Shown here: positions 1,822 to 43,536 of the stretch, piece by piece
Layout: each line of letters opens with the position of its first letter
Numbering within the stretch: the first letter of the stretch is position 1
NCBI GenBank assembly: GCA_002687935.1
Contig: NZBN01000002.1
Location: forward strand, 38,484 to 102,483
Direction: 5' to 3'
Length of the DNA stretch: 64,000 bases
Origin: Methanobacteriota archaeon
Lineage (GTDB): Archaea; Undinarchaeota; Undinarchaeia; Undinarchaeales; Undinarchaeaceae
Made by a program: the position numbers and the translations under genes
The notes under the pieces: generated by a model
Told to the model about the DNA's origin: nothing
Databases searched by the model: none
What the model saw: the letters and a program-made list of their open reading frames with translations, nothing else

Positions 1822-2346
1822 ATGAGGCACCAGTGGGTACCCATTTACTTTATTCCACATTCGCGCAGTTTCTCGTCCAAGCGTGGCTTTGCCGAATCAC
1901 GACTTAGAAGGCGTCTTGAAAAACAGGGCTGGTCTGTCTGGAAAGGTCTCCTGGTTGGTGCTGTACGAATGCAAGATGATTATTCAACTGCAACGGAAAA
2001 GTATGAATTACTTTCTAAATTTTTAGAAAAACATAGTGCGGAGCTTCTGGAAAAACTCCAATATTATTGTTCTGTTCATTTTGGCTTTCCTGATTTTATC
2101 TGTAACAAAGGTAGGGAATGGAAATTTGTTGAATGTAAGTTGGGCTATGAGCCTCTCAGTGAAAAACAGAAAAAATGTATAATGGAGCTTCAGCTTCTAG
2201 GTCTTAATGTTGAGGTTCATAAACTAGTCAGTAGCCATACAGGAACTCAGTCTGCAATGGTAAATTTAAAAGGAACTGGTAAAATAATAACTCGAAAACA
2301 ACTAACTCTTAATGACAGGCTCTTTAGCAGGTGCCAAAACATATAA
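1822..2346 (+). CDS. VRR-NUC / PD-(D/E)XK nuclease-domain protein
   Basis: GFPDF...FVECK...LSEKQ matches the VRR-NUC G-x-PD...(F/L)VEVK...LS-x-x-Q signature. Confidence 0.75.
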   Translation: MRHQWVPIYFIPHSRSFSSKRGFAESRLRRRLEKQGWSVWKGLLVGAVRMQDDYSTATEKYELLSKFLEKHSAELLEKLQYYCSVHFGFPDFICNKGREWKFVECKLGYEPLSEKQKKCIMELQLLGLNVEVHKLVSSHTGTQSAMVNLKGTGKIITRKQLTLNDRLFSRCQNI

Positions 2347-2373
2347 AACATCCATCTCTAAATTTAGCTACTC

Positions 2374-2535
2374 ATGTTAAAAGAACTAAGGAAAAAATTA
2401 CAAAATCTTAGCAAGATAAAGAATTGTCCAGCATGCAGTTCTAAGGATATTACTTATGATTCTAAGGGTAAAGCACATCTCTGCAATGATTGTGGTGTAG
2501 ATATTCAGGCTACTATTTCTTCTAAAACTGAGTGA
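2374..2535 (+). CDS. 53-aa zinc-ribbon protein (not in ORF track)
   Basis: Translates MLKELRKKLQNLSKIKNCPACSSKDITYDSKGKAHLCNDCGVDIQATISSKTE; CPAC...CNDCG spacing like TFIIB-type ribbons. Confidence 0.6.
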   Translation: MLKELRKKLQNLSKIKNCPACSSKDITYDSKGKAHLCNDCGVDIQATISSKTE

Positions 2536-2558
2536 TTTTAGGTCCTTTCTATATAGAT

Positions 2559-2570
2559 AAAGTATATAAA
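2559..2570 (+). promoter_or_regulatory. Putative archaeal BRE/TATA box for the tandem RNA
   Basis: AAAG-TATATAAA; TATA starts 28 nt before the first repeat unit. Confidence 0.5.
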
Positions 2571-2590
2571 GTCCTATGTACTAGGAGATG

Positions 2591-2803
2591 TGCTAGGAGG
2601 TGAAGGCAGCGCAAACCTTCGGGGGTGCGCTTTGAAGTGTTTCGAAAGAAACATGGATGTTGCTGTAAAAAGCAGGTCTTCGCTTTATAGCTCCCATAAA
2701 ATGCTGGGAGGTGAAGGCAGTACAATTCTTCGGACTTGTACTCTGAAATATCTTGAAAGGGATATGGATGCTGCTGTAAAAAGCAAGTCTTCACAAAACA
2801 GCA
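2591..2803 (+). ncRNA. Candidate structured ncRNA: two tandem four-way-junction units
   Basis: Both units form the same five helices with UUCG and GAAA tetraloops; six compensatory double substitutions between copies; G-U pairs and loop types favour the + strand. Confidence 0.8.
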
Positions 2804-2812
2804 CTAAATTTT
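2591..2812 (+). repeat. Imperfect tandem duplication, period 111 nt, 2 copies
   Basis: GGAGGTGAAGGCAG, TGAA, GAAAG, ATGGATG, TGCTGTAAAAAGCA and GTCTTC recur at a 111-nt offset. Confidence 0.95.
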
Positions 2813-3547
2813 TGTTTGCTTAGCAACCTTTTCTGATTCTATTCTAGCCTTTTCACTATCTCCTAGATAGTAATGCTTTACAGGATTCAAATTATCATCT
2901 AGCTCATAAACAAGAGGAATTCCGGTTGGTATATTCAATTTCGTTATTTCCTCGTCTGATATCTTATCTAAATATTTTACAAGTGCCCTAAGGCTGTTTC
3001 CATGGGCGCATATTATCAATTTCTTACCTTCCTTTAATGATGGAGCAATTTTATCATTCCAATAAGGCAGTACTCTGTTAACAACATCTTCCAAACTTTC
3101 TGTGGCTGGCAGTTCACCCTTTTCAAGTTTTGCGTAAAGTTCGTCATTTTTTGGATGCCTCTCGTCATCACCACTTAAAGTCGGTGGTCTAATGTCGTAA
3201 CTTCTTCTCCACAGGAAGACTTTTTTCTCCCCCTCTTTCTCTGCAGTTTCTTTTTTGTTAAGTCCTTGGAGGGCCCCATAATGTCTTTCATTGAGTCGCC
3301 AGTTTTTGTATATAGGAATTTCTGAGAGTCTCATTTCTTTTAAAACTATATCAAGAGTTTCTGTTGAACGTTTTAGAACTGAAGTATATGCTTCGTCAAA
3401 AGTATAGTTTCCTTCTGTCAAAAGTTTGGCAGACTCCTCTGCTTCCATTTTTCCTTTCTCCGTCAGTCCAACATCTGTCCAGCCGGTAAACTTGTTTTCA
3501 AGGTTCCATACACTTTCTCCGTGCCTGAGAAGTACCAGCTTTATCAT
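2804..3547 (-). CDS. gpmA: 2,3-bisphosphoglycerate-dependent phosphoglycerate mutase
   Basis: [17 protein letters not shown] and AHGNSLR motifs. Confidence 0.95.
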
Positions 3548-40923: not shown

Positions 40924-43536
40924 CTATTTGGTCAAGTGCATCACAAGATAGGTCAGGGGAGTCACAACAAGGAGTCCAATAGCTATCTGAATCCACGCAG
41001 CAAGGTCCAAGGGAATTATTCCGAAGAACTGTGCCAAGGGAGTGTAGATTATAGTGAGTTGTAGAGCAAGTGATGTAAGAACAGCAGCGACGAGCCAGTG
41101 ATTACTGAATAGCCTATGACCAAATACATTTCTTAGAATTTCAAGTCGAGCAAATTCATAGGCTACAATAGCTGTGAATGCAATAGTCCTTGCCCTCGTA
41201 ATATCTGGCAGATTAATATAATATAGGGTCAAGATAGTAAGACCGAGAACCAGACCGCTGGAAACCACACGAGTCAGAAGCTTTGCATTAACAATTGACT
41301 TGGACCTATCCCGGGGAGCTTTCAGCATGATTCCTGCTGTCGCTCTGTCGACACCCAAGGCAAGAGCAGGAAGCCCGTCGGTGAGAAGATTTATCCACAA
41401 GAGCATAACTGCCGTGAGAGGAAGTCCCAAACCAAGCATTGAAGCCAGGAAAACCACTGTGACTTCCCCGACATTTTCAGACAAAAGGAAGGTTACAAAC
41501 TTTCGTATGTTATCATAGATTCTTCTGCCCTCTTCTATGGCATTTCCAATAGTTGCAAAATTGTCGTCAAGAAGTATCATATCGCTTGCTTCTTTTGAAA
41601 CATCAGTTCCCCGGATTCCCATGGCAATTCCGACATCAGACTCCTTCAGAGCCGGAGAATCATTTACGCCGTCTCCAGTCATCGCAACAAGATGGCCTTC
41701 TGATTTAAGAAGATTCAGTATTCTGAATTTATGAAGAGGGTCAACACGAGCAAAAATACTAATTGTCTTAAGTTTTTCAAGAAGAAACTCGTCACTCATA
41801 TTCTCTAAATCTTTTCCTTCAACAGCTCCAGAGGAGGGTAGGTTTAACTCCTCTGCGACTGCAAGCGCAGTTCCTTTGCTATCCCCAGTCATCATAATAA
41901 CGCGGATTCCTGCACTTCTAACTTTCATTATAGCACCTTTTACCTCTGCACGAGGAGGGTCTATCATACCCTGCAAACCAAGGAAGGTAAGTCCTTCCTC
42001 TGCCTTGGAATTAAAGGACATGTCTTTATACGCAAAGGCAAGAACACGGAGAGCATTTCCTGAAAACTCAGACTCAGCTTCCAATATTCGCTTTTTTAAA
42101 TCCTTTGTAAGATTTACAACTTTTCCATTCTCATAGGTCTTTGTACATTTGTCAAGAACTACACTTAGTGCCCCTTTTGCAAAAGCTATTTTTTTACCAC
42201 GGTGCCCATGTACCGTAGTCATCATTTTTCTTTCAGAAGTAAATGGAATCTCGTGGACTCTTTTGTATTCACGTTCTGCATTTACTTTGTTAATACCTCC
42301 TTTCATTGCACTAACTATGAGAGCAACTTCAGTAGGGTCTCCGAGAAAACTGCGTTTTTCATCTTCATGAGAAAACTCTGCATTGTTACAGAGAATACCC
42401 GAGAGAAGGAGTTTTTCAACTGTAGAAGGCTTAACGGGATTTCCTTTATGTGTAAAATCACCAGTAGACTCATAACCAGCCCCGGAAATTGTATAGATTT
42501 TACCTCCTTGATAGAGCTTTCTTACAGTCATTCTGTTTTCAGTGAGTGTTCCAGTTTTGTCAGTACAAATAACATCAACTGAACCCAATTCCTCAGTAAC
42601 AGGGAGCTTCCTGATGAGAGCATTTCTCTTGACCATTCTGTTCGCACCCATAGCAAGAGAAAGAGTAACTACTGCAGGAAGACCCTCAGGTATTGCCGCA
42701 ACTGCAAGACTTACCGCAAGAAGGAAGGTTTCAATAGGACTTGCAGAATAGATGAAAAATTGAGAAAGACCGACAATGAAGGCAACAGTTATTACCATAA
42801 GACCTATTTTCTTACCGATGTTATCCAATTCTATTTGAAAACGAGTCCGAGGAGTCTCAATTTCCTGAAGTTTGTAGGCAATCTTACCTATTTCTGTGTC
42901 CATTCCTGTAGAAACGGCAACAGCAAGACCTTTTCCTCTGACCACATTTGTGTGCATGAAGCACATATTCTTCCTGTCCGCAATTGAAACGGCTTTAGCA
43001 ATAGCTTTTACAATTTTTGAAACAGTCCCACTTTCACCAGTAAGAGAAGACTCGTCGAGACCAATGCTGATATTTTCAATGAGCCTGCTGTCAGCAGGAA
43101 CTGACTCTCCTTCTTCAAGAACGAGGATATCCCCTGGAACTACTTCAGATGAAGGAATTAGGGTCTGCCGTCCGTCCCTAAGAACTTTAGTCTTTGCTTT
43201 GGCAAGATTTCGAAGTGCCTCTATGCTTTTTTCAGCTCTGTAATCCTGTATAAAGCCAAAAACACCATTCAAAGCTACAATCATAAAAATAAGAATGCTG
43301 TCAACAGTCTCTCCTACGAAGAAAGCAATAGAGGCTGCAGCAAGAAGGACCAGGACCAGAAAATTTGAAAATTGATGAAGGAAGATTGAAATAGGAGATA
43401 TTTTTTTAAGCTCTACAATTTCATTAAGTCCGTATTTCTCCAGCCTTTCCTTTGCATCCTCTGAAGAAAGACCAGTCTCTGAACTCTTCAAATTGGAAAT
43501 AACTTCCTTTGGCTGCAACTCAGAGAGATTGACCAT
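40924..43536 (-). CDS. P-type ATPase, type IIA (Ca2+/Mn2+ transporting)
   Basis: [35 protein letters not shown]. Confidence 0.95.

Follow-up and report, generated by a model that had tools for sequence, protein, structure and literature searches.

What is encoded between positions 2591 and 2803 of the stretch studied here, where two similar blocks of sequence follow one another between a small zinc-ribbon gene and the stop codon of a convergent phosphatase gene? The stretch ("the window", 64,000 nt, whose numbering we use throughout) belongs to contig NZBN01000002.1 of an Undinarchaeota metagenome-assembled genome, GCA_002687935.1. This genome (667 kb in 11 contigs, 86.6% complete) is labelled G000 below; G001 is a second species of the same genus, G002 a further genome of that genus, and G004, G005, G006 and G009 come from other lineages. 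An earlier note on this DNA had read the two blocks as an independently transcribed, tandem four-way-junction RNA. We find that the locus almost certainly represents a real and new family of structured non-coding RNA (ncRNA). The reading we favour as a whole, at a probability of roughly 0.6, is that of a stand-alone, highly expressed ncRNA family of the order Undinarchaeales that forms a k-junction-like particle and binds a partner in trans. The Undinarchaeota, marine DPANN archaea that have not been brought into culture, have small genomes (~0.65 Mb) in which nearly every retained element is expected to matter.

We checked every base pair of the two blocks by script. Units 1 and 2 lie 111 nt apart and share the same four-way-junction fold, as had been claimed, with helices P0, P1, P2 (capped by cUUCGg), P3 (GAAA) and P4 (UGCU-GUAAAA-AGCA) found in both. 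Their identity is 75% over the structured core (84% mean column identity), and six double substitutions between them keep pairing, each at the place where it had been reported: A-U is exchanged for G-C at 2595/2688, C-G for U-A at 2610/2629 and 2616/2623, G-C for A-U at 2611/2628 and 2639/2652, and U-A for C-G at 2641/2650. Both copies have been kept folded since the duplication by compensatory changes. The dimer (a 231-nt region) has a folding energy of -81.5 kcal/mol, compared with -57.6 ± 4.1 kcal/mol for dinucleotide shuffles (z = -5.8; none of 200 shuffles is as stable). All helices of the earlier layout stand, except that P0 and P1 are not separate: in other families they form a single continuous terminal helix of ~17 bp. 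P4 is one pair longer than proposed, and this extra pair (2660/2675 in unit 1) leaves J4/1 at 0 nt. Each module of ~105 nt runs from the ~17-bp terminal helix into a four-way junction with P2 (10 bp), P3 (7 bp) and P4 (5 bp). The parts of the RNA gene are given below; both units are supported by the pair check, covariance model (CM) matches, covariation and a column table of aligned sequences, and the promoter, linker and U5 run are read from the sequence.

2556-2570, + strand: promoter, a purine-rich GATAAAG resembling a B recognition element (BRE), then the TATA box TATATAAA (2563-2570)
2592-2695, + strand: unit 1
2592-2607 with 2676-2691, + strand: terminal helix of unit 1
2608-2617 with 2622-2631, + strand: P2 of unit 1, closed by a UUCG loop at 2618-2621
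2632-2636, + strand: J2/3 of unit 1, UUGAA
2637-2643 with 2648-2654, + strand: P3 of unit 1, closed by a GAAA loop
2655-2659, + strand: J3/4 of unit 1, GGAUG
2660-2664 with 2671-2675, + strand: P4 of unit 1, closed by a GUAAAA loop at 2665-2670
2696-2701, + strand: linker AUAAAA between the units, crossed by the RNA contigs of sequencing runs X16 and X17
2702-2805, + strand: unit 2; RNA contigs stop at 2805 in two studies
2702-2718 with 2787-2803, + strand: terminal helix of unit 2, with a GGAG/AAAA internal loop
2719-2728 with 2733-2742, + strand: P2 of unit 2, closed by a UUCG loop
2743-2747, + strand: J2/3 of unit 2, CUGAA
2748-2754 with 2759-2765, + strand: P3 of unit 2, closed by a GAAA loop
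2766-2770, + strand: J3/4 of unit 2, GGAUG
2771-2775 with 2782-2786, + strand: P4 of unit 2, closed by a GUAAAA loop at 2776-2781
2804-2805, + strand: 3' tail of unit 2, CU
2809-2813, + strand: U5 run, just 3' of the mapped RNA end

A first CM, built from the two units, retrieved the same tandem pair in the second species of the genus (G001) and, in three further families of the order, homologues present as one copy; a second, built from seven sequences, gained one further genome. Matches at E = 1e-17 to 1e-28 occur in 6 of the 13 Undinarchaeales genomes and in 4 of the 5 families. CM searches did not find the RNA in 4 other genomes of the phylum, in ~134 other archaea or in two further archaeal phyla with small genomes (18 genomes), the only match beyond the order being non-significant; among the genomes searched, it occurs only in Undinarchaeales. 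Its absence from G002 is an assembly break, the contig ending within the VRR-NUC nuclease gene ~300 nt upstream of the expected site. Weak CM matches in the one remaining family and elsewhere (G026, G007, G003, G010 and G013) were judged to be chance because they do not reproduce the fold and have poor folding z-scores; the last four have E = 0.1 to 5, and one weak match lies inside a probable open reading frame (ORF). The match in G026 (L012:1501-1605), a 1.7-Mb archaeon of another phylum, reaches 18 bits (E = 0.06 per genome) and contains the 16-nt UGCUGUAAAAAGCAAG, which is identical to unit 2 P4 but not significant given the 100 genomes searched. Pattern scans returned 50 metagenome loci, 26 genome contigs and 2 viral contigs, the latter repeating the records of two metagenome loci that were CM-negative, and the CM filter left nothing beyond the same Undinarchaeota loci and chance matches.

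The homologues that the earlier note had proposed to seek among archaeal genomes do carry covariation. Across 8 sequences that are 46-94% identical, standard pairs occupy 91.1% of cells, compared with 37-48% when the 3' partners are slid. Both sides have changed in 23 of 38 pairs, and none of 500 shuffles matches the observed value on any of five covariation measures. In the column table of the same sequences, the P2 cap is UUCG in this genus and GCAA or GUAA in other lineages and is therefore merely a cap; P3 is closed by GAAA in 7 of 8 sequences and P4 by GUAAAA in 6 of 8. J1/2 and J4/1 are both 0 nt long, J2/3 reads N-G-A-A-N and J3/4 reads G-G-A-N-N.

The 5' strand of the terminal helix holds GGAGGUGA, a perfect Shine-Dalgarno-like octamer, in both units (2596-2603 and 2707-2714); in unit 2 its GGAG lies opposite AAAA in the internal loop. 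We rejected it as a meaningful Shine-Dalgarno sequence because it is specific to the genus, other families having a different sequence there, within the terminal helix.

The alignment also bears on the idea that the locus encodes a small protein, namely a 77-aa + strand frame at 2590-2823 with an internal 37-residue repeat. In its favour, both G000 and G001 keep this frame open, and the period of 111 nt is divisible by three. Against this, G004, G005, G006 and G009 each have 2 stops in it, and every frame meets a stop in at least one of the eight sequences. Between units 1 and 2, 15 codons differ non-synonymously and 7 synonymously, with base pairs preserved; the ORF has no Pfam match, and the transcript described below begins at 2592, past the GTG of the frame. 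The homologues keep the pairing, not the frame, and a protein product is scarcely credible. A match to a known RNA family, a lack of transcription or of covariation in homologues, and a conserved 77-aa frame had all been named beforehand as grounds for abandoning the RNA model, and each came out in its favour.

The TATATAAA box begins 28 nt before 2591 and a U-run follows the second unit, both as previously described. The centre of the TATA box lies ~25 nt before 2592, the first base of the RNA-library contig, and an A-rich BRE-like element with a TATA box ~25 nt before the first paired base recurs in all six lineages. At its 3' end the RNA reads AGCACU in all lineages but one (AACACU), followed by U-rich sequence in most homologues (U7 in G005); the U5 run at 2809-2813 is likely an archaeal oligo-U termination signal. 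In public sequencing data, 20 runs contain the stretch, 5 of which are RNA libraries, and four RNA runs from three studies were compared over 2100-3300. X16 and X17 each gave one 216-nt RNA contig that covers exactly 2592-2805 at 100% identity, with word depths of 138 and 52, respectively; in two further studies, X18 covers 2604-2769 and X20 covers unit 2. The 3' end of the contigs is the conserved ...CACU, so the ends that the earlier note had wished to see mapped in metatranscriptomes fall at 2592 and 2805. None of the four RNA runs covers the flanks at 2100-2591 (490 nt) or 2806-3300 (495 nt), which are present in DNA runs; neither parts of an RNA run without cover nor runs outside this comparison were counted as evidence of absence. 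Since the X16 and X17 contigs cross the linker unbroken, dimeric transcripts exist, and both units are co-transcribed as a 214-nt dimer, 2592-2805. The SRP (signal recognition particle) RNA of the organism is present in the same runs and studies, so the new RNA appears alongside a classic stable RNA. A folded RNA whose duplicate is under compensatory selection, and which assembles from metatranscriptomes where the adjoining genes did not, is a good candidate for a ribonucleoprotein (RNP) or RNA-based function in these symbionts.

Does the RNA belong to a known class? Rfam 15 gave no match in the region at the gathering score, only noise at E up to 10 (CsrC at 11.5 bits and a human long non-coding RNA), and nothing at E up to 5 for the homologous loci of four other lineages. 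The statement that it fits no tRNA, rRNA, SRP, RNase P, riboswitch or ribozyme consensus is upheld, with Rfam 15 empty for six lineages. We rejected reduced forms of 5S rRNA, SRP RNA and RNase P RNA because each of these is found elsewhere in the genome above its cut-off (C4, 83 bits; C10, 141.5 bits; and C7, 146 bits). A Y RNA was set aside since G000 has no TROVE/Ro match, an absence that is not proven in a genome 86.6% complete. A box C/D guide (RUGAUGA and CUGA at the termini) or an H/ACA guide (ACA box 3 nt from the 3' end) was rejected on account of the 17-bp Watson-Crick helix at the termini, the 3' AGCACU/AACACU and the lack of a pseudouridylation pocket; of the aligned sequences, only unit 2 of G000 has CUGA. 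Our literature search on structured RNAs of Undinarchaeota and DPANN, and on archaeal four-way-junction L7Ae RNAs, found no description of it. The class is new, though assembled from known modules such as tetraloops and G.A pairs. The earlier claim of an independently transcribed structured ncRNA is borne out by the covariation, promoters at a fixed distance, lack of a conserved frame, contig ends at 2592 and 2805, and the empty Rfam search.

Two comparisons place it among known RNAs. Like the tRNA cloverleaf, it has a four-arm topology with paired 5' and 3' ends, a last arm (P4, 5 bp with a 6-7-nt loop) that passes without a linker into the terminal helix's 3' strand, a 5-nt strand before that arm and a short 3' overhang (ACU). 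Unlike a tRNA, it has a 17-bp terminal helix, tetraloops on P2 and P3, no anticodon loop and no D- or T-loop consensus, and the tRNA model of Rfam gives no match even at E = 10. It resembles orphan ncRNA classes (IMES-1 to -4; the 104 motifs of PMC2864571; the 224 motifs of Weinberg et al. 2017) in being a promoter-to-terminator unit with strong covariation, abundant in marine RNA libraries and narrow in lineage range. Those classes are bacterial, whereas this RNA is archaeal (DPANN), is not in Rfam 15 and, in one genus, has diverged units arranged in tandem as a dimer or trimer. It brings an archaeal family into the small set of orphan structured RNAs and, as a small and well-defined family (~105 nt, clear ends), is directly tractable in vitro though no culture exists.

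The strands on either side of P3 suggest how the junction may be shaped. GAA in J2/3 and GGA in J3/4, placed antiparallel, would form a G.A, A.G, A.G series extending P3, the series of the non-canonical stem of the H. marismortui kink-turn Kt-7; the likeness to Kt-7 that had been pointed out holds in sequence. GAA stands opposite GGA in both units of G000 and G001 and in G004 and G005, and in this genus U.U and Y-G pairs would follow the series. P4 starts 1-2 nt after A1n; next comes the terminal helix, and covariation supports both, so that an extra helix sits on the non-bulged strand. A k-turn whose non-bulged strand bears a further helix between A1n and the canonical (C) helix is called a k-junction in PMC10573300 and PMC4005666. 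We give about even odds to a k-turn or k-junction type of architecture here, judging from sequence and pairing. The likeness to known k-junctions (Arabidopsis and E. coli thiamine pyrophosphate (TPP) riboswitches; DUF-3268, PDB 8ITS) and to Kt-7 extends to the predicted tandem G.A/A.G pairs that end P3, the non-canonical (NC) helix, together with the A.G that comes after them, to the helix that leaves the non-bulged strand immediately past A1n, and to the expected role, which would be purely architectural and dependent on metal ions. The TPP and DUF-3268 k-junctions are three-way, whereas two helices (P4 and the terminal helix) are inserted here, giving a four-way junction; this one also differs in its short bulge and its degenerate purine pairs, taken up below. 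The rest of the RNA bears no relation to TPP riboswitches or DUF-3268. If the likeness is real, the k-junction principle may extend from three-way to four-way junctions.

In P2, the pair at columns 31/40 (2615/2624 and 2726/2735), three pairs below the loop, is non-Watson-Crick in 6 of 8 sequences (A.G, U.C, A.C and others). This mismatch could be the docking site of the P3 GAAA loop if the junction kinks.

A kink-turn motif in an archaeon brings L7Ae to mind, and the earlier note had suggested an L7Ae-bound ncRNA. The RNA would then be a canonical L7Ae-bound k-turn RNP, as in C/D and H/ACA small RNPs or archaeal RNase P, perhaps with further proteins. G000 encodes L7Ae (C8:1430-1702, E = 9e-27), and the non-canonical stem shares its sequence (G.A, A.G, A.G) with H. 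marismortui Kt-7. The motif lies in a multi-helix, four-way junction, however, with helices branching from the non-bulged strand, its bulge is not 3 nt long, and no C, D or ACA boxes stand at the expected positions. According to PMC10573300, A. fulgidus L7Ae does not fold the k-junctions of Arabidopsis TPP and DUF-3268, the extra helix blocking its binding face. The suggestion is weakened to the point of being doubtful, and we consider a canonical L7Ae particle rather unlikely.

The mechanism we favour instead is that of a k-junction-like particle acting in trans. The RNA is transcribed from its own BRE/TATA promoter and ends at ...AGCACU before the U-run. The G.A, A.G and A.G pairs of GAA and GGA would extend P3 into the junction, with P2 standing in for the C helix while P4 (with P1) leaves the non-bulged strand, and the resulting kink would pack P3 against P2 to give a rigid, self-folding particle. 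Its conserved and exposed elements, namely the loop of P4, the purines of the junction and the ACU tail, would bind a partner, most likely a protein, and with tandem copies each transcript would offer more binding sites. As to function, a protein-binding scaffold is a tentative suggestion, with the odds leaning against it.

Several observations weigh against this picture. The RNA was not found in family f2, including a 98%-complete genome, an exception among RNA-negative genomes of the set that are mostly 75-84% complete and whose absences are therefore soft; in f2 the RNA is either dispensable or diverged past detection. A comparison of loci across families found no conserved neighbouring protein gene to suggest a partner. 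In G009 and G006 the putative G.A pairs are reduced to A opposite A. The bulge between P2 and G1b (UU or CU in this genus, G or U elsewhere) is 1-2 nt as drawn, compared with the canonical 3, because the covarying P2 pairs 24-47 and 25-46 are formed. The RNA contigs give neither the strand nor the true ends of the molecule, and an RNA library may carry DNA. Nothing we found contradicts the existence of the RNA itself.

Gene context speaks to several other explanations. The neighbours vary by family (metallophosphoesterase, P-type ATPases, primase large subunit, histidine kinase, Lrp-like regulator), as does the orientation of the RNA relative to them, and the downstream gene is convergent in G000, G001, G005 and G006. 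Gene context is not conserved, and the RNA is therefore neither a leader nor an antitoxin. A riboswitch or other cis-acting leader was rejected because there is no conserved downstream gene and no expression platform and the RNA contig stops at 2805; the earlier note, too, had held a 5'-leader riboswitch to be unlikely. Its antitoxin-like alternative is contradicted by the single-copy homologues in unrelated gene contexts.

The RNA might still sense a ligand or ion as a trans-acting or orphan aptamer, with the junction purines as its pocket and the tandem copies cooperating as in tandem glycine aptamers. Conservation is focused on the junction strands, a compact multi-stem fold of ~105 nt is typical of aptamers, and in two genomes a P-type cation ATPase gene has the RNA beside its 5' end. 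The ATPase has orthologues elsewhere in G000, G005 and G009, and in G004 its gene has its own TATA box after the RNA; the lack of an expression platform and of a conserved downstream gene, the variable orientation and the absence of any match to an Rfam riboswitch family also argue against a sensor, which we regard as unlikely.

The two genomes in question are G004 (L010:1692-3116) and G006 (L019:1-3115), where the ATPase is of type II; in G006 the RNA is antisense, between two tandem ATPase genes. In G000 the orthologue lies at 42145-43533 (- strand), ~40 kb from the RNA, and a link between RNA and ATPase was rejected on the strength of these distant orthologues.

A nuclease-RNA module of the type III toxin-antitoxin kind, or a mobile islet, formed with the upstream VRR-NUC and 53-aa zinc-ribbon genes, was also considered. 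In G000 the nuclease gene, the zinc-ribbon gene and the RNA lie on one strand, downstream of a tRNA gene, and type III antitoxins are tandem RNA repeats. The single units of G004, G005, G006 and G009 have neither nuclease nor zinc ribbon nearby, and the RNA has its own promoter and stands 3' of the protein genes instead of 5', so that such a module is extremely improbable. As in ToxI arrays and CsrB/RsmZ sponges, structured units follow head to tail in one transcript, with copy number varying between strains. ToxI consists of 36-nt pseudoknots and CsrB/RsmZ of GGA hairpins, whereas the units here are four-way junctions of ~105 nt, mostly single-copy, and neither a toxin gene nor a Csr-type partner gene is linked to them.

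How old is the duplication, and are its products processed? Orthologous units (unit 1 with 1, unit 2 with 2) are 93-94% identical between the two species, and units 1 and 2 within a genome 74-77% identical; the duplication therefore predates the species split. G004, G005, G006 and G009 have a single unit. In metagenome contig Ga0187827_10093343 (L031:323-659, minus strand) the same flanking genes enclose three units, namely unit 1 followed by two identical copies of unit 2, so array copy number varies between populations. In RNA run X20, the sole contig (140 nt, 100% identity, depth 24) reads [2775-2805][2696-2804], a closed 110-nt cycle of unit 2 with a 30-nt overlap, and unit 1 is absent. 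This cycle could reflect a circular or unit-length RNA or a longer array of unit 2.

One explanation of the cycle is a self-processing, circularised RNA, with units freed from the array and joined into 110-nt circles by a novel ribozyme or by the archaeal splicing endonuclease and the ligase RtcB. The closed cycle without unit 1, with its joint from 2805 to 2696, agrees with this, as do the head-to-tail units and an RtcB gene 2.2 kb from the RNA in G000; circular stable RNAs are common in archaea. The same joint, however, is found with flanking genes in the L031 metagenome contig, and a three-unit DNA allele explains it, although such an allele does not account for the absence of unit 1 in X20. 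The linear dimer is unbroken in X16 and X17, the module is single-copy in most lineages, Rfam gave no match to a known ribozyme family, no bulge-helix-bulge motif was seen at the unit borders, and RtcB is a universal archaeal gene. We consider self-processing into circles very unlikely. The bolder proposal of a new functional RNA class, such as a new ribozyme or sensor, excised from its array as chromosomal, viroid-sized circles of 110 nt with a k-junction-based four-way fold, is distinctly unlikely as well; if true, such circles would be among the most abundant non-ribosomal RNAs of Undinarchaeales.

The sole gene downstream of the RNA in the window is the following.

2804-3547, - strand: convergent histidine-phosphatase or phosphoglycerate-mutase-like (gpmA-like) ORF (Pfam His_Phos_1, E = 1.1e-34)

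Its stop codon overlaps the 3' end of the RNA by 2 nt. It does not adjoin the RNA in other families and is a mere neighbour, no part of the RNA. Upstream, no homologue of the 53-aa zinc-ribbon ORF was found adjoining the RNA in other families, and the zinc-ribbon, 138-aa and 177-aa neighbours are mutually unrelated, with no conserved small protein among them. The 53-aa ORF itself (2374-2535, + strand) lies directly upstream of the RNA promoter and has a CxxC...CxxC zinc-ribbon pattern, with a weak match to the TFIIB zinc ribbon (E = 1.7e-5, under the Pfam cut-off).
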